64,000 nucleotides of DNA from Marsupella aquatica (taxonomy: Eukaryota > Plantae > Marchantiophyta): positions 22,355,844 to 22,419,843 of the forward strand of contig OZ316893.1 in NCBI GenBank assembly GCA_973895155.1, given 5' to 3'. This document shows, piece after piece, positions 10,280 to 56,159 of the stretch. The notes under the pieces were generated by a model, which had not been told where the DNA came from, made no database searches, and was given only the letters and a program-made list of their open reading frames with translations. Both the position numbers and the translations under genes were made by a program. Every line of letters starts with the position of its first letter. The stretch's first letter is position 1.

Positions 10280-10283
10280 TTTT

Positions 10284-10300
10284 TGGCGCTAGATGGAGGG
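10284..10300 (+). promoter_or_regulatory. Primer-binding site, probably tRNA-Asn
   Basis: TGGCGCTAGATGGAGGG, 4 bp after the LTR; matches the complement of the plant tRNA-Asn(GTT) 3' end (TGGCGCTAGAAGGAGGG, from memory) with 1 mismatch. Confidence 0.7.
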
Positions 10301-10348
10301 GGCATTTCTTAAGCCGTGAGATATGAAGTTAGAACGGAAGCGTAGGTA

Positions 10349-17170: not shown

Positions 17171-20100
17171 CCCCTCCAAAAGCAAGGTACTACACATCAA
17201 ATCCAAACACAAAGATTAGCCTAATGAAGGGGTTTAATATTATCCTAACAAAAGGTATAATGTTCTACTAATAAAACCTCTACATACACCCATAATCCCC
17301 TATAAAGAAATGAAACAAAAGGCTTTCACCCGAAATGGTTCATACAAAAACTTCTTGTAGTATTTTCTTGATCCTATATTACATATCATAGTATTGAGTT
17401 CCCATCACCACAACGTAACCACCCCTAAAACACCAAGACTCTATACACAATTGCATCATTCATTAATTAGAGCCCAATATATTAAGCATGCAAGACCATA
17501 GCTTATCAAAAAAATTACATAGTCCGGTACAAACCCCAAAATTTGTTCTCCGCAACAAAGAAACTTGCAAGAGGTCCCTCTACATGCATGACACGTTCAC
17601 TGTCCCGTTCACATATGTAGAGCCCTACAAAACGCGGATTCAAATATGAAAGCAAATAATAACTCCAACCATGTGCCCTTACCCCATACAAAACCTAAAT
17701 ATCCTAAATTATACTCTAAACCCTCCAATCCCATACCCAACCCAAATTCAAAACATTATATTGGACCCCCTTTGGGAAAGCCAAGAGGTATCCGATATAA
17801 CTTCATGAGGGGTCCGATGCAATAGGAAACGGGCCACACTTGGTAAATACACGGCCACAAGAAAAGGACGAGGGGTCTGAAGCAGATAGTTTTGGAAAGT
17901 CTGATTGCGTGTCCGATACCTTTGGTTTCGCAAAGTTCGAAACAAAAAGAATCGGAAGCAGCAGGTTTTGTTTCAGAAAAAAGAACCGATGCAGGTGCGA
18001 AGACCCGCGCGTCGGGCCCCGTTTCGCACTTGGTGTTTTTCAAATTTTTTGAAGCTGGATCAAGGAGGAGAGCTTGAAGGAGGAGGAGAGATGGAGGGGG
18101 GCGGGGGATCAGGTGGTGGTGGAGAGCAAAGGGGACCGTCCCAGCCATACAATGAAGTTATGAGGGACATTTTTGTGGCCAAGGCAGGGCTGAGTGTGGA
18201 GGACGCAGAGAGAGTAGTCCCACTCCTCCAAACGCTGATTGATGCCTCTTGGCGTGAGGCAGAGAAGACTGCTGCTGCAAGCATTGCAAGTGAGAAGGAG
18301 GCAAAGAAGAGGAAGAAAGAGGCAAAGAGAGGCAAGGGGGATGTAGAGGAGACACTGTCTCCAAGAAAACAAGAGAAAAAGCTTCGAAAAGAAGCTAGGG
18401 CAATTGAGAAGGTGCGATTGGAGGAGCAGAGGCAAAAGGAGGCAGAGAGAGCTCTCAGGCCTGAGCTAGCTCTCAATTCGGGTGGTGGTCCATTGCCTAA
18501 GAGCTACCATCTATTCCGAAGCCAATTCAAGCAGGTGCTGAGGGCCAATTTGGGGCCATTGGATTACTGGGGCAAGAAGAAGGAGGAAGAGAGATTGAGA
18601 ATCAGAGAGCAGGTGAAGGAACGGTTCAGGAACGGGGCCTACATTGATGACAGGTTCCTAAACAAATGAATTTCAGCATCACTCTCAGACATGCGCAATC
18701 ATCAGCGAGAGAAATTCAGAAAGTACCTTGGAGATATGGCAGTGGATGCAGAGGTGATCAGGGAGGAGGGTTGTCCAGACGATGTTTCCCCGGATGAGTG
18801 GGCGGCTTGGCTTGAGGAGGAACTCTCAGTCCGTGCCTGGCTGAAAAGAAGACATTGGGACAACGAAATTAGGCTGGCAGAGGAGAAGCGAAAGGCTGGG
18901 GAGAATGTTGATATCCTCCCCCTTCAACAGAACCTGCAACAATGGGCAGCTCAGGCAGCAAGACTCCCCAAACCACCAAGATCACTATATTCATTAAAAC
19001 TGAAATTATAAAGGATATAGGGAAATTTGGCGATTTAAAAACATAGTTTTAGGCATGAAAATTGTAAATTTGGAAGATGAAAAATGAAAATTCAAGCATC
19101 ATTAAATGTAAATTTCGGGACAAAAAAATGAAATTTTGGGAAAGTAAAATATTAAATTGGATGATATTAAAAAACATTTGGGTGATAAAAGTGTTCATTT
19201 GGTTGGAAAATAGATAGAATCTAGTAATAACATATAAGCTTGGATAGCATCTATATTCAAAACATTTAGCTTGAGTAAGATATCTAACTAAGCACCAATA
19301 CAATGGAATGACTATAGTGTCTAGACAAAGTTAACTAGGATGATATCCAACCTACTAGAAGGAATGAAATGGCATCATTTTCTAGAATTAAAATATACTA
19401 AGACAAATAAAATAATAATTATAAGAAAGTCCATTCAATAGCTTTGAGAGATCATAGAGTATTAATTTGATTGTCTTGTTCTCTCACTTTAGACAAACGC
19501 ATGGAAATCAACTCGACCCTCTTAATCACAAGTCATTTGAGTGGAGACTTGTAACCTACGAGTTCTATCAATCTACTCATCAATTATACCTTCCATGTAA
19601 ATTTTGAGAGTTTTCAAAACATTCTTAGGAATTGTCAAACCTCTATCCATAATATTTTGTTCTTTAGCACCTGACTTAAACCCATACATTGCAGAATTTG
19701 CAAACTGCCAACTTTGAGTAACATTGTCAAACCCAGGATCCAGCTCCCAAGTCTTAGTGGTTTGAAAGCAACGTTCATATCGAACATCATCCTTTGCATC
19801 ATGCTTACCATGTTTAGGCCTCCACCATTGTACTTGGAACATAGGAGCATTCCTAAGAGGAATGCTCTCAACAGACGTTGAAGAAGACCCTTCAATATGT
19901 TGCAAATCTGTTGAGGGAACCTCATGGTTTGGATCCACACCACCCAAAGCTCGAACCAACCAGAAACGCCCTTTGCCATTTTCCTGTTCCCATTCATCCT
20001 CTGGACGTAAAAATACAAAGTGACCTTCTTGAATATCTTGTAGAGGAATCCAACGTGCAGGTTCTCGCTCTTATCGTGCACCAACAAAGGGTGCAGCTTG

Positions 20101-21642: not shown

Positions 21643-24600
21643 TCAAAGTGTCCATTGCAAAGGAATTCCTCTACTCATTTTTAGGACTTCCATTCCTGTC
21701 TCTAGTCTTCCTATGTCGAGAAAGGGAATCACAATGTTTTTGCTTACGGTAGCTTCCCAAATTTCACACCCTTCTCTCACCCGCTTATTTAGCCAACTCA
21801 CATGGACATTGATGGAATTCTGTGTTCCTTCATCCAGAGTTGCGTCAACAAAGCTTTCTTCTTCAGGTTCATCTTGGAGTGTATTTTCCATAGAGTCAAC
21901 ATCCATAGCTTCGGCAAGAGATGAACCTCCTTCAGTCCGGCCCTGTGCTAGATCTTCAACACTCCTTACAACCGCCAGTCTCAGCCTTCCATGTACACGA
22001 ACCTCCACCACATCATGTATTTTGGGGTAAGTAGGGCATGTATGAAGGCCATATGTTTCTATATGTTGACGCTGACTTCTGTCTTGAAGTTCCAGGCATA
22101 CAATCTCAGAGGAACCTCTTCCTGCTTGTCGACTAATGGGCATAAATTTATGCAATAAACGAGAAACTGGTCGAAAACTGGTATCACCATAGTGTTCGGC
22201 CGTGGCTCCAAGCAATGGCAAACCTGAGAGCTTGTCAGTTATCATCTGATTATCAAGTGATCTTTGTATACTGAACCACTTGGCCTCAAAAAATAACTCC
22301 TGGTGTCCCAGAAATTCATGGACAAATAAGTCTAATATGACTGCTCTCCAATTCCAACTGTATTATGGACTGTCCTCGTCATCTGTCAATACTACCACAT
22401 GGTCACCAATCCTGAAAAGAGTGTTCCTCACCACTACAGATTTCAAAGGGATAACTTTAAAATCCATGACAGTCCTAAACAAGGACGTTGCCAGCCCCTG
22501 AAGAGCCCAATGCCATTTGACAAAATTGCTGCCATCCTCAGAAAGTAGACGCTTCTTCGCCTTTGTTCTACCTACTCCTATTCCTCTAGAGAGAATGGAA
22601 ATTGCACAATGAGAATCGACAGCAAATCTACTCATATTTTTAACTAGTGAAAGAGCCTGCTCTTGTGATGAGACTACAACAATACAATTCTCATGCCATT
22701 TAGGGCAGGTAAAGTCACGTTTGTCCCTTGCTGCATGCTCAATTGCTCTGGCTCCTGTTGGCCTCAAACGGTTGTGTGCTTCCAACAGTGTACGATGCTG
22801 TGGCAGAAATCCATCATCATCATTCCAAATCATCATGCATGTTTTAGTAAAAAACTGCCTGACGTGATGGGAGGTGAAAGTTAGCTCCATTTCCTTGTTG
22901 TTGGTGGCAGTCCGTCCATAACCAGAGACCATACGTTCGAACCTGTAGCACCAATACACCCAGTGTGGACCATGTTGTTCGATGTCATCCAACAACTCAC
23001 CGCTACCTACAAGACAAATTACATCTCATTTGTAAGATGAGTGATCGAGGCTAAGCAGTCTGCAGTTGCCTTGAAAAAATAGCATAAAAAATTACATCCT
23101 AAAATATTTCTGTAACAAACCTGCAACGTGTTCGAGTATAGAGGCATTAACTCCAAAATGCTCCTCACTCCTCACCCGCCATGAAGCCAACAGACTTCTT
23201 GCCTTCTCCAAAGTTGACTTCCTCCACCCCTCCTCCCTACTTTGAATGTAAAAGAGTCTTCCGATCTCAAATAACAGCATGCCAATTGAACCTAGAGGAT
23301 TTTCAACTCCTAATCTCAAGCTATATAGTATGTGCGGTAGACAAAATATAACAAATCGAGTATATTCTTCAGCTTTGAAGTAACCTAGTCTGTCCCCAGG
23401 ATCTTTCGGCCATCTCCCATCCAGACCTTTAGGTTTTCTGGCAGTCACTTCTGCTAAGGCCTCCTCTAAAACTTTGGTTTGGGAAGGTGTCAAACTTTTC
23501 ATCAATTTTGTTACATAGCTCTTGAATAAGTTGAGCGCAAGTATATGCATGACATCATATACTAAATCAGATATCAAACAGAAACCAAAGGTATCGCTTA
23601 ACCTCCAAGCCTTTGCCAACTGGTTAATTCCATGCTCTTGGGATATGCTTACCCTTGAAACTTCTGTTGTACAAAGAGAGTACCTCTGGGCAGCATCTCT
23701 AATGACCGCCAAATCTCGTTTGGCAGGAGGGTACCGCTGCAAATAACGATTGTTACCATACACAGTAACTCCTTTGGGCCCTCTTCCTGAAGTGTTTGAT
23801 TGTTTTTTCCACGTGCCTTTCACTAGACACCTCCTGCACGGTGCCTTCCCCCTCTGGCACCACCCTCCAAATTTGCATTGGGCCGGGTGGTCTCCTGTAA
23901 ATAACATTAGTCTCACCCTACAAGTACAATCTTTTGAGGTGATAAGGTCATGTATTAGCTCTGGCGCATATGAAAAATGAAGAGGGAATCCGGCAACTGC
24001 CAACATTTGCACGTCTTGGAAAAATGGCTCCATGAAAGCTTCCAAGAAGTGCAATTTAAGCTTGGTGAGTTTTTCAGTAGCACTGTTTGGTATAAACAGA
24101 ATGGGAATAGGTTGTATGTCAGAATGGCTACCCACATTCAGTATACTTATCTCCACTGTCCATGTGCTTCTCATAACTGAAGATGCTGATTGGAAACCAT
24201 CCCAGTGAGCCATTAGTGCAATATTGCGAGGGTCCCCCTGCGTACAATAAGAAAAACAATTTAATTAGCATGAATGATCGAAGTCAGAAGGAATCCAAGA
24301 GAAAAGAATGATTCTCAGATTAGCAAACCATCACAACGACAACGACAACGACATTCAGAGGCCCATTCAGAGGGAAGAAAAACAGTTATTCAGATTAACA
24401 TGCATGTACTGACAGCGCCGCATTCAGAAACGATCAAAGAGAGAGAAACAGGTTTCAATATTCTAAGCATAAGAGCATGTAATATATGGCAGCTGGCTGC
24501 ATTCAGATCGAAGAAAGCAAAGAGTGCAATCTAATTAAACAGGTTTTCAAATAAAATTTATTAGAAGTATCATGGAGATTTTCAGAGGGAAGTAATTGAG

Positions 24601-26023
24601 AGCAGACAAATTCATGGAACATCAACGTACATCATTTGGCTAGTACCTGAACATATACTGGCCTTATTTGGAGCCGATTTCCGCAAGTGCACACAATGTC
24701 ATACATGTGGATGTCTCCCACCAGCTTCAATCCTTGGTTCAAAAGGTCGCATTTCTCTGGGTAGGTAGCATAGCCTTTCCAACAAGTCTGGCATACCACA
24801 GGTAACTCATAGGTGCAACACGGGTCCCAGAAATAGGAGTTTTGTTTGGCTTTCGAGCCATCCCACCATTCGCTAATTACATCGTCTTTGAGACTCCCAA
24901 GCTGGAGCCAACGAGCTCTCTCCCTCCACATGGTTAGTATTTCATGGCAATAGCTTCGTGATCGACACAAATGAGATATCAATGGCGCAATAGGCAGGTA
25001 ATCAAACCTTAACATATCTTTGCGCTTGATTCTACACCCGAAGACATCACATCGCTCGCTGCAGGTTTCACAATCTCTGCACAAAATATTCTTGCATAGA
25101 GAGCACTTACAACTCTTGCTCGTTGTTTTTGCTTGGTCATCCTGGATGCTTGGTCCAAAGGCCTTAGGTTCGTGAAAGTTGTCGTCAGCCCCCAAACACA
25201 GACGCCATTGATGTGGTTGAGGTGCGCCCATCACTTTGTAAGCAGCCGCCAAGCCATTGAAAGTCCCCAAGGAAGGTATTCCTAGTGGACCACCATCCCA
25301 TTGAGTACCAGCATACCTCAGCAGTGAGCCAAGGGGTACATTCCTGTAGTCAATGACTGGACTTGCATCGATTGGTTTGAACAAAGCTCTCAAAATCTTG
25401 TCCTGCAAGTCCATAGAAACTTTAGCAGAATCCAACATGGACTGGAGTCTCCATGTCTCTCTATAAATAGCCTCGCTCAAAGTCAAAGGAATTTCGTTGA
25501 GTACAGCGGTTGAGTAGTCGTTGCATCCAACATTATCAGACAATGGCATAAGAGTTTCTGCACCATCCACCCCATCCTCTGTTGCACACCCAACATCAAA
25601 AGCACAATAGCTTGCTGGGATTGCATCAGGGTCACTTGCATACGTAGACCGAGGGCCATTGACAAAACCAAGCAACGGTCTGAGGAGTAGCGTGCTTTGT
25701 ATTCTCCATTTGGAAGTCCTTGACAGCTTTGCAAAATCAGATGGAAGATCTGATTGTTGACGTGAACAATCTCCAATCACATCAGAGGACTGCCCTTGCA
25801 CTATTCTATCTCTTGGTCTTTGGGTCGACACTGCTGCCTTGTGCAAAGGAGGGTGGACCGGAACATGCCGCGCATCTATGAGAATGCCTTGTTTATCCTT
25901 GAGTCTATGATGACCTCTAGTTCTTTTGCTCACCAAATCAAAGCCGTCAGACATTCGTGAACATCTATACTTGCAATCACATCTGACTTTCAAACTCAAA
26001 TCAAAATCCTCCATGTTGCGCAA
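21643..26023 (-). pseudogene. Divergent EnSpm-type transposase of element C, 3 exons, one stop
   Basis: Exons about 26023-24647, 24237-23121, 23006-21643. Motifs YLPI, WWDGS, RNIALMAHWDGFQ, FTGDHPAQCK, PCRRC, YDVMH, FKAEEY, HGP...WCYRFER. Stop at 22363. Confidence 0.85.
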
Positions 26024-26379
26024 GAGTCGTAGACAAATTTTCGCGACAAAAAAAGAGTAATGGACAAGTCTGGGCTGCCCACTACGTACGTACTAAGTTG
26101 TCAAGGTCTATAGTATACTTCTGATTGAGTCATTCATTAGCTTCACAGGTCCTGATCCTGTGCGGTCCCCGGCCTACCCTTATCGCAGCCCAGAATTGAC
26201 TCACAGCCTGGATGTGCTGGGATTTGGTGCTGGGATTTGGTGCATTGCATTGAAAGCATATTTGAGCACTTGTGGGGCCAGTTAATTGAAAAACAAGCCT
26301 ACGGTAGTACTATACGTGAACCCAGCTTTGGCCTTTGGGCACATGTGGGGCCAGTTTATCAGTTCTTTGGCGGGCCCCT

Positions 26380-39073: not shown

Positions 39074-41222
39074 TATGATATATATATATGTCATGTTTGA
39101 CTTCAGCAACCGAATCCTAATATATAGAGATCTAGGGTTCACTAGTAGTTGACTAGTAGTCAATAATATATAATGGCCAACATATATGTTAACTGTAAAA
39201 GATACCTATGCAATTAGGTGGATACAAATGTAGTAGACTTTTACCAATTGTACATTGATACAATTATTGTAATTCAATGGAGGCTGGTGCTACTACCTCT
39301 AGCTCCTGCTATTTCCTATATAGTATTATATTTGTCAGTGAATTGAAATACCAGCATGAGTACTTTGTCTTATGCTCAAAAGGTTGAATTGGTTTGCTTT
39401 GTCTACTAAAAGAATAATGTTTGCTTAAATAAATATTTTAAATTATAAAAATTGGACAACTGAGATGAAAAGAGATCGAGCCTTCTTATTAAGGTTGGCA
39501 AAACAAGAAACACTTCTCATTATAATATTCAGGTATATACGTTGACAAAGAAAACGTTTACTGTACTAGGAATATTGAATTCTCCAAATAGGCTGATGTA
39601 AATCAAGGAATATACAAAATACCCAAATCATTTTGCAAAAGTAGGATTTTACAATACCCCAAAGTAGGATTTTACAACATGCCTATGATTTATCTTCAAG
39701 GACTTTGTCCCACATGTGAAATCTGGGTATATTGAAGTTTCCTATGCCGTCCAAACAGCCAACATAACATCCCGGGGAATGTTTCATAAACCCATTTAAG
39801 GTCAGTTTCCCCACTTCTTTGTCAAAAATATGGGGGAAATGGGTTTACATCTAGGATATTAGCCAAGGTGGGGGTAAGACAGAAACTCCTTGTGTCACTT
39901 GACGGCTGAGATGTCCCCAAAATCATCTTGTAACCTGTGCCATGGTTAGTCTTTGGCCAAAAATCAGTTGTCAATGGCAAATGTCTTTCCCCCTCCCCTT
40001 CTATTGTAAGTTCCTCGGACAGTGCTTGCACAAGATTCTCCCAATATTTGACCAGAGGAAATCTCTCTTTATATGCTGCAAAGGTCTCATCCTTACAACT
40101 TTTCTTCAAGAAATCAATATAGCAATTAAGGAATGGGATGATTTCTCCAACTTTCTTTTGTACATCCCTAGATATAGGTTTTGCAAATGGTTGGCCTTCC
40201 GGTAAAATGAGCGCATTTGTGATGGGATCAGTTCTCCAAATGGACCTCCCCATTGCCGGAAGCCAAGGTTGCTTGACATGTGCTTTATATTGATACACTG
40301 GCACATTATCCCTCATGGAGAAAAGAAATGCCACTGGTTTTGAGTGACCTTCTATCTCTTTCACCTGGAAAGTTTTCAAATACTCCTTGTAAGATGCAAC
40401 CTCTTGAATCAATCGTGGTACAGGATGAATGCTTTCACACTCCCAAACCTCAGCCATCAACCCCAAGAGGGTAGCAACCTCTTTGTATCTGACCTGTTTG
40501 GATACTTGAGAAAATAATGCATCCACGTCTTCATGGGTGTGGCCAACCATGAGGAATGACATTTGCACAGTTTCAAACACCCCCCTGCTAACAAGCTCAG
40601 TGCAAAATGCCATCACATATTGATTTTTGTTATCTTTCCCTGAATTGTCCATCTGCAACGTTAGGTGCCTTGGTAAGGGCTTGAAAGAGCCCCTAGTAGT
40701 CTCAGGATCATCCTTAGAACCAACATCCACTGTGCTTGACTTTTTAGTCTCCTGACCATCTTCAATGCCTTGAAATCGAACAATTGAAACATTTTTGGGT
40801 TCCAAGTAACCAGCCAGAAATGCTTCAAAGTCTAGAAGGGACTGAAATATTGGCCTAGTTGCATTCCAATTCAATCCCTCAAGAAGGTCTCCAGTTTTGT
40901 CTCCTGTGTAATCTTCCAAATCTTGGAGGCATTTGGCCAAAGATGTCACGGTAAAGTCTGCATCTCCAGGCCAAAGTCCAGTCAAACTGAAATGTGCATA
41001 CACTCCAGGATCTCTTCCATGGGTTAACATCCCAGTAAGAGCAATAGGCAAAGGCTGACCACTACCAGAGAGGGATTTTGGAGTGGGGACTAACCTGGGG
41101 ATCCAAGTCTTGGCTTGATCCATCTTATCGTGAATAATGCAAAGATAGTTTTGAGGATCCTTCTTTGCAAGAACCCTATGAGCATAGTAAACATATCTTC
41201 TTGACATTTGTTCACGAAGATG

Positions 41223-43552
41223 TGTGACGCCAATGACATGGTCCTTATTTTGTAATCTGATTAAGTAGGTTGCTGTATGCAAGGAGTAGCTATTGATATT
41301 ACATAACAATTAGCAAGATGGCAAGAATAAGGGCAATCATGGCGTTAAGAGTAGGGAAATAAAAACTATGTCGCGGGTGGTCGACGACCATATCTCTTTC
41401 AATATGTCACCAAATCCGGATCTGTAAAGAGCATTGGAAAGATCTGGTCAAGGCGAGTAAAATCGATATAAAACACTTGGGAAACGGAGGTGTATTAAGA
41501 GAGATACGGCCTGATTAGTGTGACGGGTTAACTTATGGCCGGAATTAGCGGATTCGGCTTCAGTTTCGGGTTAACCCAAGCTCGACCACGGCTTAGCTTA
41601 TGTGAGCACGGCTTCAGCTTAGCTCAGGTAAGCACGGCTTCAGCTTAGCTTAGGTCAGCACAGCTTCAGCTTAGGCTTAACCTAGGTTCGGATTAGATTG
41701 AACTCGGGTTAGCCTAAACTCGGGCTCAGGTTAGCATAGGTAAGCTCGGGTTCGGGCTCAGCTTAGGCTAGGTTAGCGGATAGCGGATAGCGGGTAGCGG
41801 CCTAACCCGAGACCACGGGTTAGCTCTACTCGGGTTAGATAGGATAGCTAGGTTAGCCGAACTCGGGTTAGCTATGTAACTCGGGTTAGCGCAGCAGTGA
41901 GTACCCCCTCTCGGTTGCGGGGGCATAACTCTCTGTGTATTTGACCAAATCGGCTATAATTGACCTCGTTGGAAAGAGGAGCTCAAGCCGCTTCCAACGC
42001 TGCTATCCACGCAGCAAATGGTTGAATACAGAAATCGGGAGAGGAGGCGTAAGCTCGCGAAAACCATGGAGGAGGGCCAAATCCGAAGTACATAGCCAAT
42101 TCGAGATAGAAATAAAGCTGCGAGTTAGGGTTCAGTAGTTAGAGATAGTGGCGGCTCTGTTAGGGCTAGGATGGGGCTCCAGCAGCGTAGTACCCAGCCA
42201 TTTGGGCTCAGTATGAGAGTATATAGAGCATCCCTCCGGTAGAGCCAGGGGGGGGGGACTTCAGTTGTGTGATCTCACTTAGACTGAGTAGCGGGGAGGA
42301 GCTCTGTGCAAGCAAGGCTGGACTTGGACGCTGCGTGTTGGGGAGAGCTTGGTTGTGCTATTACTCAGGGAGTAATCAGCCAAGCTTCACAACAACGGGT
42401 TGCTAGGTTTGCGAGCTGGATTGTGGCTCTTTCTAGTGGGCAGCACAACTGGGTTCTTTTCCCCCGATACAGAGCCTTGGTGATAGGTGATGTATTGGTG
42501 ATTGTAAACTGTGGGGAGGATTTCAATTCGATTTGCGGTGGGCACATTAGGGAGGCTGAGGTACTGATTAAGGGGCAGCAGGAGGAGCATTTACAGTTTA
42601 GTCTGGCAAGGCTACGTGATCCATGGGGAGTCCCGGCCTTTGTCTGGTGGAGAGCACTAAGGGATCTATGGCCAGAGCTGAGCTTGCAGGGCAAGCGTGA
42701 GGCCGGGCCTCATTGCAGTCTGGGATAGATCGCCGTTAGGCCTGGTACCAGCTTTGAAGTCGAGTCAACTATGCATGCGTAACTTGACGTTCTGAATTGG
42801 AGGTGTGAGATCTGTATGTGCCCCCAAGAATGAAGTGTAGTGAAGGAGGTTGAGTTCAGGATTGAGCTTGCATGGCAAGCACGGGGCTTGCAGGGCAAGC
42901 ACGTCACAATCTGGAGGAGACAGCCTTCGGCCCTAGTGTTCGGATCAAGTGTTCTCAGTGAACTATTGTGCACATCTTTGAATCTAATTGAGTTTTCCTC
43001 TCAGGCCTCATTTCTCTCATGGATGTGTGTGTGTGTGAGGCAATCTGAGTGTATGATGGAACTAGCAGCGCCACTGAGAGGTGTACCGGGTGCATTGAAG
43101 CGGGCTGGGTGAGGACTGTCATAGCTCTGATTGTTGAGAGTGGAATGGCAGAGTGGTGGGGCAATGGCTTAGAAGTCCCTAAGCCGGGAATCAGTCAGGA
43201 GTCACTGGTTTATGGGTACATTCCGGCGGCGGAATAGAAACATACCTATGACAGTAAGCATATGTATAGACCTATGCGCACCGTAGCGCTAGGCCCTGTG
43301 TGTACGGGCCCGATATGAAGACCCCTTCTCACCAGAACTATCATGAGCGCAGATCTGATCCCAACCTTGGTTCCTTGGGATTGAGCTTGGGTGATGTGTG
43401 ATAGAGTCTTGCTATGATAGTCTGGTGTTAAGGGCATAAACTGGTGTTTACCGGCATTCACAACATCCCTTCGTGATCCTCAGGTACAAGGAGATGGTTT
43501 TGGCACCCATAGTGACGTTTTTGGTGTTAAGACCCATGTCAATCGCGTGACA
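41223..43552. mobile_element. Solo LTR, 2330 bp, inside B's transposase
   Basis: TGTGACGC...GCGTGACA; TSD AGATG at 41218-41222 and 43553-43557; GGTTAGC/CTTCAGCTTA repeat field at ~41550-41890. Confidence 0.92.
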
Positions 43553-45470
43553 AGATGTCATGCTCTTTTCTCTTCAATCTCTGCACGCTCTTTTTTACTC
43601 TTCTCCCGCATCAATTGATCTTTGAACTCAGTGCAAAATGTGCACTTGGCAAATGCACTTCCCTTGTGAAAGTCAAAATTATCAAATGAGTTTTTCCAGA
43701 TGTTGTACATAGTAACTTCAGTAACCTTAGCAAACCCATCTAATTCCATCTTGGTAAACACCTCTTGGAAAATCTCTTTCTTAGTAAAACAAGATGGGAG
43801 CCGATATTCAATAGTGTCAGTGCCGTTGGACCCACCATAGGGAAGATGTGGCATTGGTTCCCCATTTTGGATTAAAATGGACTCCAACAAGGCGCGAGCG
43901 TGCAAAGTGCTTGATCGTGTCTTCCGTTGTCCCTGATTTCCATGGAAACCAATTGTGCAACCAGCTTCGTATTGATTTTTGTAGTCATAGTACTTTGTTG
44001 TATTGAACCCATGCATTTTAATAAATGCATCTTTACAAACCACACGTCCCTTTAGAACAAAAAATCCCTTTCTCTTGACTTGCTCCTCTCTACACCCAAA
44101 GAGACTAAAGATGTGACTTGTTTTGTTGTCACTTGACATTCCATGGTATTCCCTCCTCATTGCCTCTAAGTCCTCCCTGGGCATGTTCAAGCAACACTTC
44201 AGCTTGCAACAACCTTCTCTTTGGATGGAATCAATGGACTCGTTAATTTTCAAAAGTGCCCTCGACTCCAAATGCTTTTTCTTCCTCTCCTCAAGATCAA
44301 CTTATGTCCTCCTAATGAAATTGTATGGTCTTTTTGTAGGTTTACCATCACCATCCGAATCCGGATCGCCCTTAGTTCGACCCGACTCCATCCACTTCTC
44401 TGAAACTTCCTCAAGGATATCCCCAAGAAACCTTTGAGACGAAATCAATGGAAGGGATTTGATTTCCCACCTCACCAAGCCAGGGGTACCAACACGGATA
44501 TTTGGAAATAATCCGGGTTCATTGATATTCACAACAGCAACACCAACATGATCTGCACCAAGAAGTTCATCGTCAACGGCACCTGTTTTAAATGGGACCG
44601 TGATAACACCTGTTGCAACCTTTCGACAACGAGAAGCGTCATACAAATCAACCTCCTCCGCCATCCAGTTGGAACGTAGTGTAAAATCTTTTAATGGAAG
44701 ATCATTGAAAATATTTGAACTACCAAACACGCCAAAATCTCGTAGAGTGCCCTTTCTAGAAACATGTGCAACATCCCAGATAACCCAGGTATGCAAGGCC
44801 TCTTCTATTGTATCAGCTCTAGGGTGCGAGTATGGCAATTTTTGATTTCCCTTAACAATATCAGATATTCTTATACTGATGCGACCAACCCCGAGTGTTT
44901 CAGTATGACAAATATCCATCGGATTTGTCTTGAAAACGACTCCATTTGCAACCAACTGATCAAAAATGAACATCTGAACTTCATCTCCTTCCTTGAACAC
45001 GTCCTCTTCAACCCTTGCATCAATTTTGGATTTATCATTTCCAGCATCTCCACCCAAAGAGAAATCATCGACATTGATTATTCGGCGCTGAGTTGATGAC
45101 TTCAAGTATGCCAATGCACAGTCCCAAATCACGCAGGAGTCAATTGCCTTAGCCAATGTAGAAAATTTGGGCGAAGGAAATGGAAGTTGACGCGATCCAT
45201 CAAAATACTTTTCGATCAATACCCCAATTCGATTGTCCCCTAGACAAATGTTCTGTATAGTATCCTGGGGTTCAACCTTTTGAACTATCCCAATTGCCAT
45301 TTCAAATCCATCGATCACCAATGACACTTCATCCCCTCGTGTAAAATTGATCATGATAGCGGACTATCTGTATTCAAATAAAGTTAGAAATTGTTAAGTT
45401 CCCCATGTTACAATCATGTTTCAAAATCTGGACTCTCCTCCAAAAAATATTGTAAAATCACTCAAAACCC

Positions 45471-45810
45471 TAAATACATTCAAGTCGGGTCGGAATTATT
45501 TCGACCCTCCTCCAACATTATGTCTTGAAATGATTGAATTGACTAAACATTTATAAGTCGGGTCAGAATTATTTCGACCCTCCTCCAACAATATGTCTTG
45601 AAATGATTGAATTGACTAAACATTTACAAGTTGGGTCGGAATTATTTCGACCCTCCTCCAACAATATGTCTTAAAATTATTGAATTGACTAAACATTTAC
45701 AAGTCGGGTCGGAATTATTTCAACCCTCCTCCAACAATATGTCTTAAAATGATTTAATTGACTAAACATTGATAAGTTGGGTCAGAATTATTTCGACCCT
45801 ACTCCAACTA
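45471..45810 (+). repeat. 73-bp tandem array, about 5 copies, each with a 21-bp palindrome
   Basis: GGGTCGGAATTATTTCGACCC core at about 45487, 45560, 45633, 45706 and 45779; a further partial copy at ~45903-45928. Confidence 0.92.
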
Positions 45811-46431: not shown

Positions 46432-47307
46432 GTACTTCTAAGATAAATAAATAAAATCACTAACCTGCTCCGCAATATATCTCTGCCACCCTTGTACAAG
46501 CTAAATGGGTACCTTGGATGCCAGCATTGTAACTCTTAGCACCACAGTGCTCACCAGTGCCCTTACTAAACCTTGCATTCAACCATGCGGACCTAAACAA
46601 GGCACTCGGACAGAGGAGAGTCAGTGATCGTACCAATCACTGTCTAAATGACAATGAACCAAACAATGGATTGTGGGAGGTCTATACTCAGTTTGAGAGG
46701 CAAAAAGCCCACACATTACCCAGCACACGAGTGGACACCAACAGATCGGGCACGGGTGGATGAGGCACGCACCCAGCACACAAGTAGACATCGGATAGGG
46801 TGTCAGCCAATCACTCACGAGTGATAGGTGAGTTGCGAGCACACACCGCTGACAGCTCGGAAGTTTAAAATTGGTAGGTGAGTCGCGAGTGGTCGTGAGT
46901 GGTCACACCATCGGTGACTCACGATCACATGCACCAAGGAGGGTCTCCCTCATTGGTGCGCATTGATGTCTCCATACCCTCTCGGATCCTTGCCTCCTCG
47001 GACTCCTCGCTCGCAGGGGGTATAGGAAGGCAGGCCTTGCGCTTGAGGCCTCATTTCCTTGCCTCCCTCTTGCCTCCTCTCTCGTCTCCTCACTCCTTGC
47101 CTCCCTCTTGCCTCGCTCTAGGGCTTTTGTTTTTGCCTCGCTCTTGGGATTTTTTTTCTGCCTCGCTCTAAGGCTTTTATTTCCGCCTTGCTCCCTTCCC
47201 TTTTGGGTCGCTCCCTCGATCATTATTTGCCTGTTAGTGCCCTCTTGTAGCCTGTGGCATTCTCCATTGCTGCCACGTCTCATCTTAAATCTCACTCGCC
47301 CCTTACA

Positions 47308-50300
47308 ATGTCTACTTCCTCCAGTTCTGAAGCTTCCACCACCTCTGCCAGTTCTCAAGAGTCATTGAACTTCAATTATAACTCTCTGTATGAATATGAC
47401 CCTGAAGACCCGGATGTCCAAAAATTGGTTAACAATGCGTTGGAGGCGTCAAAGAAAGCCCAGTTAACTTTTCCACGTAAGGCATCACCTGCTTCAACTT
47501 CTTGCCTCGCCCTAAGGGCGAGGCAACTTTACTTTAATTTGGATTTCAAACTTCTTATTAGGAAAATTTCTATATTCCTTTGCAGTCGCCTCGCCCCAAG
47601 GTCGAGGCGACGTCTACTTCATTCTAGATTTCTTGTTGCTCCGAAGGCGTATTGGACCTTGTATCTTACATTAATAAAGGATCTTTAGCTATATTCTATT
47701 TTTTGCCTCGCTCTTGGGGCGAGGCGATGTTGTCTGCATTCCTCAAATGTAGTCTACATTCCCAGAAGTTGCCTCGCCCTTGGGGCGAGGCGATGTTATC
47801 TGCATTCCTAAATGTTGTCTGCATTCCCAGAAGTTGCCTCGCCCTTGGGGCGAGGCGATGTCCTCTACATTCCTAAATGTTGTCTGCCTTCCCAGAAGTT
47901 GCCTCGCCCTTGGGGCGAGGCGATGTTATTTGCATTCCTAAATGTTGTCTGCATTCCCAGAAGTTGCCTCGCCCTTGGGGCGAGGCGATGTCCTCTACAT
48001 TCCTAAATGTTGTCTGCCTTCCCAGAAGTTGCCTCGCCCTTGGGGCGAGGCGATGTCCTCTGCATTCCTAAATGTTGTCTGCTTTCCAGAAGTTGCCTTG
48101 CCCTTAGGGCGAGGCGATGTTGTCTGCATTCCTAAATGTTGTTTGCTTTCCTAGAAGTTGCCTCGCCCTTGGGGCGAGGCGATGTCGTCTGCATTCCTAA
48201 ATAATGTTTGATTGCTTGGATGAGGTGGCAGGGCTAATTGCACTAGGAGCAAAGAAGATTTTGCAATCTTCTATTTGTCGCCTCACCCCAAGGGCGAGGC
48301 ACCTTGAAAGTTTTCCACATGTCAATGTTAAAAATATGATGCTGACCATTTTGTTTTCAATGTTTCTTACCAGGAAAAAATCTTGAGAAGCCGGAGTTAA
48401 ATATTATGGACGAGGATATCAAGGACTTTGTTTAACCTGACCAAGATACTCCAGGATTTAGATGGGCACTAGAAGTTGGGGTGTCGGCGGAAGGCAGTCT
48501 CTTGATTTGTTTCAAGGGCCTCACAAGTCAATTGAATGACCGCAAGACAATTGTTACTCTAGGTCCAGTCGTCCTTGTGAACACGGACAACAACCGCAAT
48601 GCAACGATTATTGTTGAGTCCAATGAGAAATCTCAGTGGATGAGACTTCTAGTGCCAATAAAACTCTACTCGACTTTACTGAATGTTGAGTGGATGGCTC
48701 GATTGGAGATAAGCGTAGCTGATATGGGATTCTTCCCAGATGGAGTAACAATTGATCAGATGTTTGAGAAGACGCATTCTCAAATAAGTGGAGTTGACCT
48801 AGTGTTTGGATTTCTCTACGTAAAGAAGCACATGCATGACAATGCGGACAGTGTAGACCCTCCGTCTACTTGGATAGTTCAAAGGATGATTGATAAGGCA
48901 CATTTTTCATATGAGCAAGCAATCGACAAGAGTTTCATTTTTTGTCCAGAGTTTCAAGAGGCCGCGTGCCGGACGTGGATTTCAGAGATGAAGAAAAAAG
49001 AAGCAAATCATAAGGCAAAGGAGAGAAAGAAGATAGTGGAAAGAAGTGCGCAATCAAAGACAGAGAAGAAACAAAAGCTTCAAGAGCCGGTTGTTCAACA
49101 AGAGAAACAATCTGGGAGTTCACGCCGTAAGAAGATGGCTAAAAAAAATGAAGATGATGAGGGCCCCCAAAAAAAGCAGACGAAGAAGGCAAAGGTTGAA
49201 AAATCAAAACCAATGTCAAGGTCGACTTCAAACTTTGTCTTGCATCCAGAGGATGATATGTGTCCGACAGAAGGACCCAAAGAAGATGATGTGCTCAAAG
49301 GCCAAGAGGTTTTGCGTAATATTGAGCAGTATTATACTTTTGGCATCCGCGAAGTTTTTGATATTCCTGTAAAAAGTATTAATCCGCCATCGGCCGTTTT
49401 TGTATATCGAATGTTCAATCTTTCGCATGCAATGGAGATATCAAAGTCTATGATGAAAAACCCTGGACAGGAACCACAAGTTGCTGATTTGATTCCGTAT
49501 CGCGAGAGCACTAAATAGTTGCTTCATTATGACAACACACCTCAGGATAGGAAAGAGTTTTTGATTGGTGTGAAGAAGCATGAGATCCAATTCCTTGCCA
49601 TCAGTGGCCAGCATTCTGCAAGAGCTGCCCAATGGATCCAAGGGTGGGCCGAGACTGACGCCAAGCTGACAGATCTTGCCAACAAACTAAAGTATAGGAA
49701 AGCAAGGATCCTATCTGACCTCACTCTGAAGACAATTTTGGTTGAGCATTCAAGTTTATCGAATGCTGTCAATGATACTATGCAATTTAAGTCTTGTTTT
49801 TTAGAGACTATTGTTCATGCACGAAGGCAGTTTGAGGAGTGCGGGAAACCATCGCGTCCAGGGATTGGGACCAATCAAAATACAGACAGGAAAAACTATC
49901 AGGTACATGTTGGAGCAACGCAAACTATTCTTGATCCGCTTTGTTTAAAGATTGTCAATGGTAGAGGTTTGCCTCGCCCCAAGGGCGAGGCTGCCTTTTC
50001 TTGTTTTCCTTGGTTAAATGAGGGCGAGGCAACCTAGACTAGTCTCTCTAAGAATAATTCCCTAGTTCCGTTTCAGTCAATTGCGGTTAGATGTAGAGGT
50101 TTGCCACGCCCTTGGGGCGAGGCGGCTTAGCCTATTTCAAACATAGGTATAAATTTTCTAACATATGCATTGTACCCTGAAACTAATGTCAAGTCCATTG
50201 GATATGCAGGATTGGTTTGCCCTGGCAAAGGTTACAATGGGGAAGTCAAGCCTAAAGAGCATTTATTGGTTACTTTTTGCCGAAGATGAGCTCTTTGAAT

Positions 50301-53300
50301 TATGGTGGAACGTGTGTGCAAAATGGTTGAGTGGGAAGCTCCAAGACGGGGCTGGTGGGTATGGAGGGCCAAGACCCCCAAAATTGATCACTCCCGGTAC
50401 CTTTCGATGCTTTGAAGGAGAGATTAGTAGCAAACAGATAATTGAGATCTTGAAGGACGTTGAAGAGGAGCGTGTCTTGCTGAAGAAGGATATCACCAAC
50501 AAATCAGAGCTTGTTGCAATGGGAGACTTGGCCCTTACAATCAAGATAATGTCCAAATTGAGAACAGTCATTATTGGCTATTTCGTGGAAAAGTATCGTG
50601 AGAAGTTTCCTGTTGGCACATCTTGGGAGTCTCTGGTGATATTGTTGCCTTCCTTGAAATCTGAGCTTGAGATGACAAAATTGAGGAGAGTAGCGGGTGA
50701 GGTTTACCTCAACAATTCATTGAAGAAGAATGTGGTCAAGGAGAGTTTCCCACAAAGTCTAATGGTCAGACTAGATGGGTTGTATTGTAAAGAATTTGGT
50801 GGGATTGGTCGTTCTCGCACGGAGCCTTTCTTGACATTTTTTAGTGAGAATTTGATGAAGACGACCGTGCCGGAAATGCTACAAGAGCCTTCGCCTTTGT
50901 GTCCTCTTGCCATTGTTGACTTCCATAGACTCCGACAACATGTTTGGACCGATGCTGAAATTATTGCATTACTGCAATACATTGTGGATCTTCCAAGAAA
51001 TCCAACAATTGTTGTTGTCATGACTGTGCATCCGGGGCCACTTGCTGCAAACATTTTGAGTGCCCTTAGGAAATTGCAACATGAAAAGGGAATGGACATC
51101 CACGTTGACTACGGGAGCTATCGACGGAGTGATACACTAGTTCCAGAGGGCTTACTTTTCAGTTGTGGTATGGAGGAGATAATCTTTGCAGGAATCACCA
51201 CTGAGGAGAAATTTGATTGGAAGCAAGTGTTCAGGCCTGGATTTAATTGCCAATTTTCTTACAATTCGGCAATCGACCCTGATTTCCAAGTGGAAGACAA
51301 GACGAAGAAGCGAGATAAGAATAAGAGTAAGACAAGTAAGGAGACAGAGACTGAGTCAACTTCGGCATTTCACATTGGAGATTTCTTACGAAAGGCTCCC
51401 ATGTTTGAGATGGTGGGAAGTAGAGGTGGCTTTGTGAATATTCACGCTAAGCCAAAATGTATGCTGTAGAGTATTATTGAATTTTTTTTGGCTGAAGGGG
51501 AGACTATACTTGACTTTTTCTCAGGAGGACAGGTTATGAAGGTGTCATTGTTGTGTTTCAGAGAATGCTTTGCGTATTCAGACACTGAGGATGAATATGA
51601 TTTCACTCAGGCATATGGAAGGGTTCTCTGCGAGAAAGTTCCTTCCATAATGAGTGACCGGATGGGCGGTTCCAAATTTGGTAGAGCCCGCGATGGGGTT
51701 TTTGAGCATGTTGGTGCCAAAGAAGGCGTAGACCAGGGCAAAGATGATATTGAGGAAGGAGAATTGGGTCACGACACAGATGACAGGGTCACCCGAAATT
51801 TGGATGAACGTGGAACACAAGTGGTACGTATTCCCTACTTTGGTGTGGGGTTGGCTGATGTTGTGGGTCGACCTGAGGGCGACCCACCAAGAAATCCCTT
51901 TGCCGGTGTAGAGAATTGGATGCACCAATCGGACCCAGATCTTACATTGTCCACATCGGACGCACATTGGAAGGCAACCGCAGATGCTCTAGGCAATATT
52001 GACGCAGTAGAATTGGGAGAAATGTCAGACATTGCGCTTGCAAAGGAGGATGATCGTCAAGTACCTGAGACCGCTGCAAATGAAGAAGAGAAGGCAGGTG
52101 CTTCAAATCCTCCCCTGTCTCCTCTATATTGCTCATCAGAGACTAAATTGGTTTTTACAAGTGCTTCTACAGGAAGCCCCGTAGTATTATCATTTTCACA
52201 AAATTCTGGATCCGAGATCGGCAGGACTGGATATATGAAAACAATCCGTCCTGCAACTCATTTTATATGGAGAAATGGACCAAAGGTTGGAATGATAGAA
52301 TCACTAGACGATGCTCCAAAGATAATGGCAAAATCAGATTACAAAAAACTGAACTTGAGACTGAGCCCAGTTTTTGCACCCCCATCCTTTGAAGAGCAAC
52401 TTCCCAGTGGTATCAATTCCGAGATACAGAGTGTTCTAGGTGATCAAACAATAGATGAATTTGGGCATTTTAGCATTGGAAATTATTAGCCCTTTCTTTG
52501 GTTCTTGGTATTTTAATGACAATCTAAGCTTTATCTTTGTAATAATATACTTTTTTACAGACCAAAGTTCCGTCGTAGAATCTCCTTCCTCAAAGGATTT
52601 TGTTGGCATTCCCTCGGAAAGCGTTGCTGTGGAGGAAGGGTTTGACCCAGGTATACTTTGGATCTAAAAAATGGCAATTGAATGTAATTAATGTTTTTTT
52701 AGGAGGGTCGCCCCAGGGTCGTTCCTCTCTACTTCAAATGCTATAACAAAGTTTGTTTGATTTCAAATTTTGAGAGTTTTCCTCCGTAGTAATTGTTTAA
52801 ACTTTGAGTCGCATTGACTAAGGGCTTATGTTAATGTTTCCAGAATTCACTCCAATACTACACTCTCCGATCCGACGAAAGCTCTTGGTTCTTGACCTTA
52901 ACAAGATTTGTTGGGATTGCATTAAGACCAGAAGCTCAGGACCATGGCGAAATCAGACAAGTTTACGTGGTGTGCACTGGGGGAGACGTGGAGGGTTTAA
53001 TTTCATGTATGTGGAGCGCCCATACCTCCACAAATTTCTATATGCAGCTTTCATGGTTTTTGACGTCGCAATTTGGACCTGTGCAAGGAGGCCAAAAACA
53101 ATGGACTTAATGGAGTTGATTTTCACTGAGGAGGAGCGACAGAAGTTCAAGTTTGTCTTTACTCAAGAAGATACCTTTGATAGTTGCATCCAAAGGCCAG
53201 ATATAATAGATGGGAAGGCCAATTTACTTCTGAAGAATTTGCAAACTATTTGGGACCGTTTTCCAGAAAAATATGATGCTTCTAATACAGTTCTTATTGA

Positions 53301-53883
53301 TGATTCTCCATTGAAGGCATTTTTGAATTATGACATGAATGGATTGTTTCCAAATCCATTTACTCACACAGCTTCAAATGACACTTTTTTGCCTGAGATA
53401 TTATGGCCGTATCTTTGCAAATTGAGAAAGGCTTACTGCGTTCAACATTATATCACTGTCAACAATCCAAAGTGGTCTGTTTTCAATTTATTAACAAGCA
53501 AGGAGGATCATGCTGCCATCTATGCTCTTTTGGAACAGAAGTGGGGAGATTGTCGTTGTATCCATAGGGAGTTTGGAACCATCTTGGATGTGACTCCTGA
53601 AGAGATTCCTTGGGACGGAAAGAACGAGGTGCAGCATTACCCACCACTGGAGACGTGGACCACGGATGAGATCGAAGAAACTGCAAACGTAATACTTGGA
53701 GACAACTATTCTGGTCCTCATACACAAAATAGAAGGCATTTTATTTGGAAAGTTCTAAGAACTAGGGATCTCACCAATAAGTTTAAGAACCACCATGCGA
53801 AAGATACTTGCAACCGTGACATCCGCTATGATAAATCAGGAAGCAGACTTTCTTGTTCAAATGAGTTTTGTCTTGATCATTAG
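47308..53883 (+). pseudogene. Spliced accessory gene of element B: ParB/Srx-like, amino-methyltransferase-like and FCP1/NIF HAD-like domains
   Basis: Phase-compatible exons 47308-47476, 48374-49902, ~50210-52439, 52561-52651, 52844-53883. Motifs FDIPVKSI...FLAISGQHSARA; HAKP...IIEFFLAEGETILDFFSGG; KLLVLDLN...RPYLHKFL...VAIWT...LKNL...NTVLIDDSP. Three stops (48433, 49516, 51467). Confidence 0.7.
47703..48201 (+). repeat. 65-bp tandem array, 8 copies, each with a 25-bp palindrome, in intron 1
   Basis: TTGCCTCGCCCTTGGGGCGAGGCGA at 47703, 47769, 47834, 47899, 47964, 48029, 48093 and 48158. Confidence 0.95.
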
Positions 53884-56159
53884 GAGATAGGGTTGCTCTA
53901 GTGCCTACCCTGAATTGTACATTCATATTATGTCTTGAAAGGATATGTTTTGAACATGTAGGATAAAGTAAATAATTAGGATATATGCTTAGTGTGAGGC
54001 TCTCTCACTGGACTGGACAATTTAATAATTATATAGTGGGTCAATCTCATTTTGACCCTTGATTTATGACCATCTATATTTTTTAATTTATAGATGGTCT
54101 GAGTGGTATTGGCCTCTGATTTTTGGACTAAATTAAATTTACTCTAATTTTTAAATTAATTAGAATATATGATTTAAGTTATTATTAAACATTTGGGTGA
54201 AAAAAAACAAAATTTTGGGCGTTCAAAAGTGTCTATTTGGGCTGAAAAAAATTAGCTTTTGGGAATGCTTTAATAGAAATTTGGCCTGAAAAAAAATAAC
54301 TTTAGGGTTCATCTTATGGACTTTTAAAAGTACAGTTTTAATGAATATAGTGATCAAGGCACATCATAGCAGCATTGGAGAGAGTGCAGGGGAGGCCAAC
54401 CATCACTCACCGGATGGGGCAAGGCGGCTCCAATTGATTGAAGGCTGAGTTTGTAAGTGCCCTCCCTCTCCTCCCCACCTTGACTCCCTGATCACCTGAC
54501 TCCTCGCACGAAGAATGAGTTGTTTGTGCCTTATGTCTTTTGTTTAAACCCTTTGCAAAACTCATTTTTGCTCTCGGGCCTGTTCTTTCCGATACTCATC
54601 CGATAGGTTTTGCATCGGAAGCAGCATCGGACACCGTGTCATGCCATTTTTCTTGTTACACATCCGATAGACGTCCGATGCAGGATGTATCGGACTTTGC
54701 ATCGGACCCCTCGGCAAAACATTTAAATTTTTGAATGAACGTACTTAACGTTAATTTTTACTAGGGTAGGGTATAAGTTAGGGTGAACTATGGTTTAAGG
54801 TTACATTAGGGCTATGTAGGGTGGCTTGGTTTAGGGTAGGGCACGCTAATACTAGATTTGATATTAACCTTAGGGCCTCTATGGTTTGGATCTTTAAATT
54901 TCAGGAGCGGGAGTATGGTCGTCCTATTGCGCCGTTGGAGAGGAATTTGGCAAAGACGGATGGACCCCGCGCTCTAAAGCGCCACCTTGAGGATGAGTTG
55001 GGAGAGGTAAGTGTTCACCCTAGGGTGATATAATGTTTAAGGTTGTCATGAATTTGTTAGAGTTATGGTCGGGACCATTCATTCTAATTGCAATTAAACC
55101 CTATTGCACAAGATGAGGAGGGGTCTGGGTCGGAGGAGTTGGACTCAGATTCTGAGCAGGATGCTGAGGCAGGGTTGGGGAGGATGCCCACAGTCACCCG
55201 TAATCCTCAGGTCCGAGGTATTGTTGCCCCATCTGGTGCCGTTGCCCCATCAGCAGGGAGGGGTGGGTCACATGTTGCTGATGGTGTGGGCTCCCATCGC
55301 TCTGGAGCATCACGGGGTGCGGGGCCCAGGCACTCAGGGGGTAGTAGAGGTGATGGCATGGGACGAGGCGATCGCGTAGGAGTATCTGGTGCAGGTGGCC
55401 CTTCCCAACGAGGTAGTGGCGACATGCCGGATGGTGGATCTAGAGGGCGCGCACCATCTCGTGAGTCTGGTGGGAGTATGTCAGCACGACATGGGCCACC
55501 CACAGGATCTGTCGGTGCACCGTCCCATCACTCTAGCAGGTCTGCGGGAGGAGCTGAGGCGTCCTTTCACTCTGCCGTGTCGGGGGTTGGTGGGACATCT
55601 ACCTTGCCTGACCACCCTAGCGGTGCATCTAGTGGGTCACGGTCTAGGCCTGCATCAGGCCAACCCATGCCATCTGGTGAGCAGGTGGCTGCCACGGTTG
55701 TGGGCAGCCAGAGGGAGGAGGGCTCTCATGATGCTAGACCTGTACCACCCCTTCGTTCTCGCCCAAAGAAGAAGATGGGACGCAACACACCTTTTTAGAG
55801 GTTAGTTGCATTTAGGTGGCCGGGTATCTAGTGCTAGACAGCTTTGATTAGACACTCACTAGGAGGTACCTTGTATATAGCTCAGTGTAGTCTCTAGTCA
55901 AAGCTCTCTTTACATCTTCTATCGTGCCATCACGACCAGGATGGGTCTACCCAGTAGGCCTAATCCATTTTGTACATATTGGGGTGATCCCCTTTTTGAA
56001 TATGATATTTTGACCTCGTGTTTATAGCATTATTTTTGGTTCCTAATTGGTGTATGTCACCTTCAACCCTAAACCAAAACCCAAACCCCCAAAAAACCAC
56101 CCATGAAACCCTGTATTCCACCCCCAGAACATTTGATAATCCGTTGCAAGTCTGTTACC

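Follow-up and report, generated by a model that had tools for sequence, protein, structure and literature searches.

Relation to described systems

The closest described counterparts of the gene considered here belong to giant transposons of algae. In Ectocarpus, a gene of the element Sola1-1_Ec32 encodes a 1104-residue protein that combines a ParB-like domain with an N4-cytosine/N6-adenine (N4C/N6A) methylase and lies opposite the transposase gene, and the passages of the report that deal with it cite similar accessory proteins for green and red algae (PMC12477816). In Bostrychia, the section of a preprint on PAG3, a gene of Plavaka elements, places inverted-repeat arrays next to a ParB-like gene, and names VANDAL as the sole transposon known to bind and modify its own sequence (bioRxiv 10.1101/2025.02.11.637652). 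The VANC protein of Arabidopsis VANDAL is described as binding motifs that lie in introns and tandem repeats of the element that encodes it (PMC5735166). Here we describe a gene (47308..53883, forward strand) in a 64,000-nucleotide stretch of the liverwort Marsupella aquatica (GCA_973895155.1, contig OZ316893.1, positions 22,355,844 to 22,419,843; hereafter the window). The gene lies inside a CACTA-ended transposon, element B, and is predicted to encode a ParB-like domain and an amino-methyltransferase (MTase)-like domain in one chain, followed by an exon for a NIF/FCP1-type HAD domain. The reading that we favour, with confidence slightly short of even, is that this is a transposon accessory gene for a noncatalytic, self-targeting DNA-binding scaffold that acts on palindromes in its own introns and helps the element to stay active despite silencing.

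As far as the account of Sola1-1_Ec32 in PMC12477816 goes, the two loci share several features: both domains lie in one large protein (1104 residues there and 1325 here without the HAD domain), the gene is carried by a giant DNA transposon and is read from the strand opposite to that of a transposase gene, and binding to the element itself is proposed. The likeness drawn here is one of domains and layout. Unlike the Ectocarpus gene, the present one is from a land-plant lineage, its 35-kb CACTA-ended element has two transposase-like genes, and it has in addition a PH-like N-terminus, palindromes in its introns and a NIF domain downstream; an active enzyme is predicted for Ectocarpus, in an account that gives no motif, whereas the catalytic motifs here are gone family-wide. 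With PAG3 the locus shares a ParB-like domain in an EnSpm/CACTA-superfamily element that has tandem inverted-repeat arrays. In the preprint's description, however, PAG3 joins ParB to a 2-oxoglutarate (2OG) oxygenase, the MTase is on the separate PAG2 (with SET) and the repeats stand beside the gene, whereas here ParB and the MTase fold are in one chain and the repeats are inside introns. ParB plus MTase accessory genes and palindrome arrays are already published for algal transposons (PMC12477816), and the novelty attributed to the fusion in an earlier note on this DNA was overrated. The intron-only 21-bp palindromes and the PH-like N-terminal domain are new here. We found no report of a land-plant version in the literature, algal supplements and a green-algal chapter (PMID 21507349) aside.

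Exon 2: PH-like and ParB-like domains

A search with exon 2 (48374..49902, +) of 1.84 billion representatives gave 90 homologues, each standing for a cluster at 50% identity. The predicted structure (pLDDT 85.6) comprises a PH-like β domain (approximately 48436-48855), a basic linker in which 28 of the 77 residues are Lys or Arg, and a ParB/Srx-fold domain (approximately 49330-49850) that holds the motif SGQHS. The Foldseek list is headed by Noc, ParB, PadC, sulfiredoxin, KorB and SbnI (probabilities of 0.93-1.00 for the top ten; best E-value 1.7e-3). In the VIA comparison residues 298-448 match PadC (Z of 8.0, root-mean-square deviation or r.m.s.d. of 3.3 for 98 aligned residues) and KorB (Z of 7.8). 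The ParB/Srx core that the earlier note had read from IPVKSI (at 49363) and AISGQHS (at 49597) is thus supported by the model, which has this nucleotide-binding fold. The N-terminal domain, newly noted here, appears PH-like: residues 1-140 gave many PH, PTB and FERM-F3 matches with VIA at Z of 5-6, which is consistent but modest. In the Atlas, the ParB-like part falls beside fungal clusters, one without a name (0.96) and one DUF3723 (0.95). Exon 2 profile searches against PDB sequences returned low-complexity matches only.

Across the homologous rows, G-Q-H, S, R and N residues around the ParB-like site are near-invariant, and SGQHS itself is present in 46 of 68 complete rows. We take the GQH position to be in register with GERR of ParB. 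In Caulobacter ParB, the relevant passages of PMC8367383 report that R103A and R104A abolish cytidine triphosphate (CTP) binding. None of the 70 rows that cover the position after GQH (of 91) has Arg there, and 61 have Ser; the canonical CTPase motif GxxR is therefore absent from this ParB-like fold, family-wide as sampled.

These observations bear on a stronger version of the chromatin clamp that the earlier note had suggested, namely a true parS-loaded, nucleotide-gated clamp that would slide and spread along the 35-kb element in a plant nucleus. The predicted ParB-type fold, the near-invariant residues around its site and the cognate-looking, parS-like palindromes described below all speak for it, and to that extent the suggestion stands, but the CTP-binding Arg is missing in all 70 rows. 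Sulfiredoxin, SbnI and the serine kinase, moreover, have a ParB/Srx-type fold and are not known to clamp. We regard a gated sliding clamp as quite improbable.

Exon 3: a β-class methyltransferase fold with degenerate motifs

Exon 3 (50210..52489, +) encodes a helical region, a β-class amino-MTase fold, an acidic linker and a C-terminal domain, as judged from models and homologues. Five close homologues are 34-43% identical to it. The Pfam family N6_N4_Mtase matches all five with E-values of 1e-5 to 7e-5, slightly below the curated cut-off, and a profile built from them matches M.RsrI (E-value 1.7e-4), with motif I set against LDFFAGSG with one gap. The model, derived from 13 rows (pLDDT 70), places the MTase fold at approximately 50815-51650 and gave a best Foldseek E-value of 2.6e-5. 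It matches CcrM with a Z of 15.9 (r.m.s.d. of 3.7 for 203 aligned residues), M.MboIIA with 14.9 and M.RsrI with 14.6, and eleven β-class MTases have a Z of at least 12.7. DF[H/S]R at 50918, taken as motif IV, precedes motif I, DFFSGG at 51512, so that the model has the order of a permuted Rossmann fold. The signatures HAKP (51443), ETILDFFSGG (51500) and AIVDF (50909) are in place, and the assignment of this region to the β-class amino-MTases holds up well. The helical region after the ParB-like domain, which was modelled as part of larger models, has no helix-turn-helix (HTH) match.

A DPPY-type motif was looked for in the homologues. Motif IV reads DF[SGAH]R in seven and DL in two of the nine rows that cover it (four of the 13 lack the region), and is never xPPY; the window copy has DFHR and the contigs of four sequencing runs have DFSR. 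Motif I, for which the consensus in S-adenosylmethionine (SAM) binding is D-x-F-x-G-x-G, is D[FL]FSGG in all nine covering rows. According to the passages of PMC10406627 on these residues, DPPY/SPPY positions and holds the target base; since this motif is gone in nine of nine rows, the MTase family is most likely catalytically dead. What had been a guess from one copy in the earlier note, that the enzymes may be dead, now appears as a family pattern for motif IV (nine of nine) and GxxR (70 of 70), with the change in the HAD domain seen in the window copy only. A DNA-marking system, also proposed there, is unlikely because the catalytic motifs are missing family-wide.

An active writer, in which D-F-S-R would still allow N4C or N6A methylation at TCG-N9-CGA sites of the element itself, nevertheless has points in its favour. 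Motif I is conserved, as is the Asp of motif IV, the whole MTase fold is kept across 200 residues, and a self-modification hypothesis has been published for the algal proteins, in the part of PMC12477816 that discusses them. These are outweighed by the missing Pro-Pro-Tyr in nine of nine rows, residues that hold and stack the target base in the account of PMC10406627, and by a motif I shorter than that of M.RsrI by one alignment gap, and we think such activity very unlikely. With the writer motif gone throughout the sampled land-plant family, the role of the gene, if it is useful, would be binding or recruitment and not marking.

The Marchantia DN4MT1 and rotifer N4CMT enzymes are also β-class amino-MTase folds in eukaryotes, and N4CMT (8s9n) matches the exon 3 model with a Z of 13.4. 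Unlike the window family, both are described as active with SPPY kept, in the sections of bioRxiv 2021.02.12.428880 and PMC10406627, respectively, that concern them; those on DN4MT1 mention no ParB domain.

Among viral proteins, the exon 3 model is matched best by a 494-residue phage protein annotated ParB/Sulfiredoxin (E-value 1.4e-6 over 445 columns), and this match of models fits descent from a phage ParB-methylase fusion. The gene shares with such fusions (BFVD A0A6J5MMM5; ParB-Tls loci, as presented in the pertinent part of PMC4738411) the order ParB, helical region, β-class MTase, and differs in being a spliced gene with degenerate motifs in a eukaryotic transposon. Phage ParB-methylase fusions are likely to be the ultimate source of the plant gene; a tblastn search against phages gave weak MTase matches only. 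The joining of the two domains is independently backed by liverwort proteins, since the exon 2/3 junction is spanned by Riccia P0070, P0083, P0093 and P0097 and by Calypogeia P0004 and P0018.

At 52130-52470 there is a C-terminal domain of ~110 residues (CSSxxKLVF...IDE[YF]G) that is present in all five close homologues and has no match in Pfam.

Palindromes in the introns

Intron 1 contains 11 copies of the 21-bp palindrome GCCTCGCCCnnnGGGCGAGGC (47504..48300), of which eight form a 65-bp tandem array and three have unrelated flanks. Intron 2 contains two more (49971..50123) and a half-site at 50024, which in run X1 is completed by a 20-base insertion. Allowing at most one mismatch, the window holds 13 copies, all in the introns of this gene and five of them outside the tandem array, and none was found in 100 shuffles. 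A second array (45481..45808), with units of 73 bp and five copies of the near-palindrome GGGTCGGAAnnnTTTCGACCC, one per unit, lies between the ParB-MTase gene and the divergent gene to its left. GGGTCGGAAnnnTTTCGACCC and GCCTCGCCCnnnGGGCGAGGC are different 21-mers with a common TCG-N9-CGA core, and this core occurs 17 times in element B against a null mean of 1.85 and a maximum of 5.

In the VANC system, as outlined in PMC5735166, an element-encoded protein likewise recognizes short motifs that tandem repeats have multiplied within introns and elsewhere in the noncoding parts of its element. Its motifs are of 8-9 bp and not palindromic, in contrast to the 21-bp palindrome of the window; no family match links VANC to the window protein, and the function is shown for VANC and drawn by analogy here.

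The position of the palindromes bears on a different accessory role, in which palindrome binding would organize or bridge the element for its transposase, in the manner of CACTA TnpA, with no effect on silencing. Such a role would suit an element with CACTA ends, a Tnp2-like gene and a DUF7869 gene arranged head to head with the ParB-MTase gene, and the relevant part of PMC12973397 documents interactions between transposase and accessory protein in CACTA, Harbinger and MULE elements. It would also suit a further observation: at 54038, ~300 bp inside the right terminus of B, the second palindrome recurs once in diverged form. The main palindrome, however, is confined to introns far from both ends (4-7 kb from the right and ~28 kb from the left), and 9-mer counts found none above three occurrences in either subterminal region of B. 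We consider a role in transposition alone unlikely.

Diverged TCG-N9-CGA palindromes were also seen at 44363 and 51865, and two of the three, counting 54038, are inside coding frames. Upstream of the start codon, three 25-bp repeats with the palindrome half-site GCCTCGC occupy 47109-47193, and further degenerate half-sites are found at 47058-47119.

Exon structure, the window copy and the HAD exon

The five phase-compatible exons and the protein of ~1700 residues proposed in the earlier note were recovered in part. Canonical GT/AG ends and compatible phases give 1685 codons when exon 3 is ended at 52439, but the frame is not open, being interrupted by stops at 48433 (TAA), 49516 (TAG) and 51467 (TAG), and one of the joins is doubtful. 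Exon 1 (47308..47476, +), with the ATG and a Ser-rich start, is predicted only. The contigs of the four runs show no joint at any predicted intron, and splicing is accordingly a prediction throughout.

The three stops are private to the window copy: contigs on 48340-53950 from all four runs have sense codons at each position. Between the window copy and the run contigs there are 269 differences, of which the best-supported 40 were examined; at 30 of these the window copy carries C>T or G>A, with 26 of the 30 in CG or CHG context compared with 629 of 2379 background sites. Deamination of methylcytosine leaves such C>T and G>A changes. By its sequence, the window copy is best described as a methylated, decaying pseudogene in a family that has open copies. 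The number of contigs and their high summed depth suggest that copies are numerous, the depth not being a copy number in itself.

Exon 5 (52844..53883, +) matches PF03031 with an E-value of 3.1e-16 and 59.9 bits, well above the curated cut-off of 21.8, and UBLCP1 (3shq) with an E-value of 4e-9 with the WT, K and DD positions kept. The HAD/NIF domain was thus correctly recognized, as was the replacement of DxD by DLN: LVLDLN is found at 52885 and, in the window copy, which alone was compared, DLNKI at 52894 stands in place of motif I, DxDx(T/V). The change to DLN has precedent, as a class of DxNxT NIF pseudophosphatases is described in fungi, in the passages of PMC13216928 on that class.

The exon is part of the element, since it is present in all four runs and its depth in run X1 (455-545) is like that of the ParB and MTase exons (474-480). 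Its attachment to the ParB-MTase chain is a separate matter. The exon 3 frame either runs to the stop at 52487-52489 or is spliced at 52439. The final in-phase GT donor ahead of the stop is at 52440, and its use removes GDQTIDEFGHF, which is kept in all five close homologues, and the exon 3-to-4 join is therefore doubtful; no later in-phase GT donor was found between 52440 and the stop. The five homologues end a few residues past GDQTIDEFGHF, as does the window's own frame, although some of them are plain open reading frame (ORF) calls that would end at a stop regardless. Exon 4 (52561..52650, +; 30 codons) is predicted from AG/GT ends in phase with exon 5 and has no homologue support. Its clean in-phase splice sites, its lack of a start codon of its own and the little space for a separate promoter favour a single chain, whereas an in-frame ATG at 52828 could begin a stand-alone HAD protein. 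Searches for longer fused proteins from the MTase side among those of 1578-4505 residues, and from the HAD exon among those of 619-2000 residues, found none; both are weak negatives, the first having 1328-1577 residues outside its range. Hence, of the proposed triple fusion, the ParB-MTase part is upheld and the HAD part is unproven, all five close homologues stopping before it. On the sequence, a 1325-residue ParB-MTase protein without HAD fits at least as well as the 1685-residue fusion, and we put attachment of the HAD domain to the chain, possibly as an alternative splice form, a little below an even chance.

One contig of run X5 over 52078-52690 (depth 20.7) lacks a base at 52463, at the disputed end of exon 3.

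Family and distribution

Two of the five close homologues and ten of the 30 clusters that were looked up carry an organism name, and the species are Calypogeia fissa, Riccia sorocarpa and Diphasiastrum complanatum, which would by themselves point to a liverwort or some other non-seed plant as the probable host. In a quick tree of 46 of the 91 rows, Riccia appears in several distant lineages. Pattern scans of metagenomes, prokaryote genomes and viral contigs revealed no close relative; another pattern scan gave one 1.8-kb contig, too short for context.

The family also allows the gene to be weighed as passive cargo, that is, as a captured gene without a present function whose palindromes are by-products of slippage. 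The window copy is a pseudogene, many homologues are fragments and the catalytic motifs are missing, all of which would be expected of cargo. On the other hand, the stops occur in the window copy only, motifs are near-invariant over 90 clusters at 50% identity that include Riccia, Calypogeia and Diphasiastrum, and five palindromes lie beyond the tandem array. The chance that the gene is mere cargo seems slender.

Proposed role

In the scaffold reading that we prefer, the loss of catalytic motifs across the family as sampled goes together with the retention of neighbouring nucleotide-binding motifs. The protein would bind the twofold-symmetric palindrome as a dimer, a proposal made because ParB and β-class MTases both act as dimers. 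The MTase fold might still bind SAM or DNA without methyl transfer, and recruitment of host chromatin or RNA polymerase II (Pol II) factors could fall to the PH-like and C-terminal domains, perhaps together with the NIF pseudophosphatase. The outcome would be local anti-silencing or autoregulation of a VANC-like kind. Binding, dimerization and recruitment by the ParB-MTase protein are steps that we infer.

Several points weigh against this reading. On the ParB side, every exon 2 Foldseek E-value is above 0.001 and no ParB-family profile in Pfam, PHROGs or NCBIfam matches the window protein; two distant homologues match phrog_1033 ParB at E-values of 0.03 and 0.07. On the MTase side, the model rests on 13 rows at a pLDDT of 70, the mapping of AIVDF to DPPY comes from strand order and aligned ranges and not from residue superposition, and hhalign aligned the motif I half only. 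The helical region gave a weak match only (Z of 5.4 at an r.m.s.d. of 8), and neither an HTH nor any other domain that would read DNA could be recognized in the window protein. As for the palindromes, eight of the 13 stem from one tandem expansion, the TCG-N9-CGA null ignores tandem duplication, and the GCCTCGCCCnnnGGGCGAGGC-type palindrome is known here from this element alone. The observed/expected CpG ratio near the arrays (0.66-0.69) is not above that of several other segments, so there is no sign of local methylation protection. Finally, the anti-silencing outcome, which is probably the one to expect, is drawn by analogy only.

A bolder form of the scaffold reading can be sketched, in which giant transposons of non-seed land plants would carry a phage-derived triple pseudo-enzyme reader (PH-like and ParB-like domains and a dead β-class MTase, with NIF spliced on) that loads as a dimer on intronic parS-like palindromes, spreads and recruits Pol II or chromatin factors. 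We rate this as decidedly unlikely. If true, it would put a ParB-type clamp to work in a plant nucleus and would join VANC as the second sequence-specific anti-silencing system, one of independent origin. In either form, the case provides a candidate protein together with an exactly defined 21-bp candidate site, in a multi-copy family some of whose copies are open. A second self-binding system beyond VANDAL would reveal how giant transposons survive in methylated genomes, and a new targetable epigenetic tool could come of it.

Element B and its surroundings

Element B is ~35 kb long and is bounded by a perfect pair of 20-bp terminal inverted repeats (TIRs), the left (18983..19002, +) starting with CACTA and matching the right (54333..54352, −), which ends with TAGTG, at 20 of 20 bases. 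The ParB-MTase gene is inside this pair, as the earlier note had stated, and the termini CACTA...TAGTG are those of CACTA/EnSpm transposons. The flanks show a 2-bp duplication, AT, or a 4-bp duplication, CAAG, if the ends are extended by AT; the frame across the empty site reopens once the element is removed, on either reading. Plant CACTA elements typically have target duplications of 3 bp, which the flanks of B do not show, and other EnSpm groups have 2-bp duplications.

A CACTA/EnSpm Tnp2-like transposase gene, in several frames, occupies 21643..26092 (−), as judged from ORFs and a Transposase_21 match over 23095-24264 (E-value 0.0024; 17.5 bits, under the cut-off of 28.6). The DUF7869 transposase-like gene (39822..45363, −; PF25273 at an E-value of 4.8e-45, and ORFs), which may be 'Sola-like', is the one head to head with the ParB-MTase gene and is split by an insert of ~2.2 kb (41310-43557). 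A search for a nested TIR pair and target duplication around the DUF7869/ParB module gave AT-rich chance pairs only and, as separate nested ends were not found, either transposase may be the partner of the ParB-MTase gene.

The insert at 41310-43557 contains many GGTTAG-like repeats and has short inverted TGACA/TGTCA at its two ends; no target duplication was evident. Between the divergent genes, a 328-bp insert at 46104-46431 resembles a miniature inverted-repeat transposable element, with imperfect inverted repeats of 44 bp at its ends and flanked by a target duplication of 8 bp, GTACTTCT. A further multi-exon gene inside element B (35144-39073, +) includes a duplicated exon pair (37175-37440 and 37552-37817, 95% alike), and a Pfam scan of it gave no significant family. 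In the left half of the element there are degenerate inverted repeats (28857-29218 and 31816-32161) and, at 32171-32365, a stretch that matches the region of the Tnp2-like gene at 67% in inverted orientation, which together suggest older nested elements. The gene that element B splits (17905-19011 and 54353-55798), with its frame continuous over the empty site, probably belongs to another mobile element. Gypsy-like pol frames and long terminal repeat-like sequences, labelled by a look at their translations, flank element B at 60245-63520 (−) and 1061-17157.

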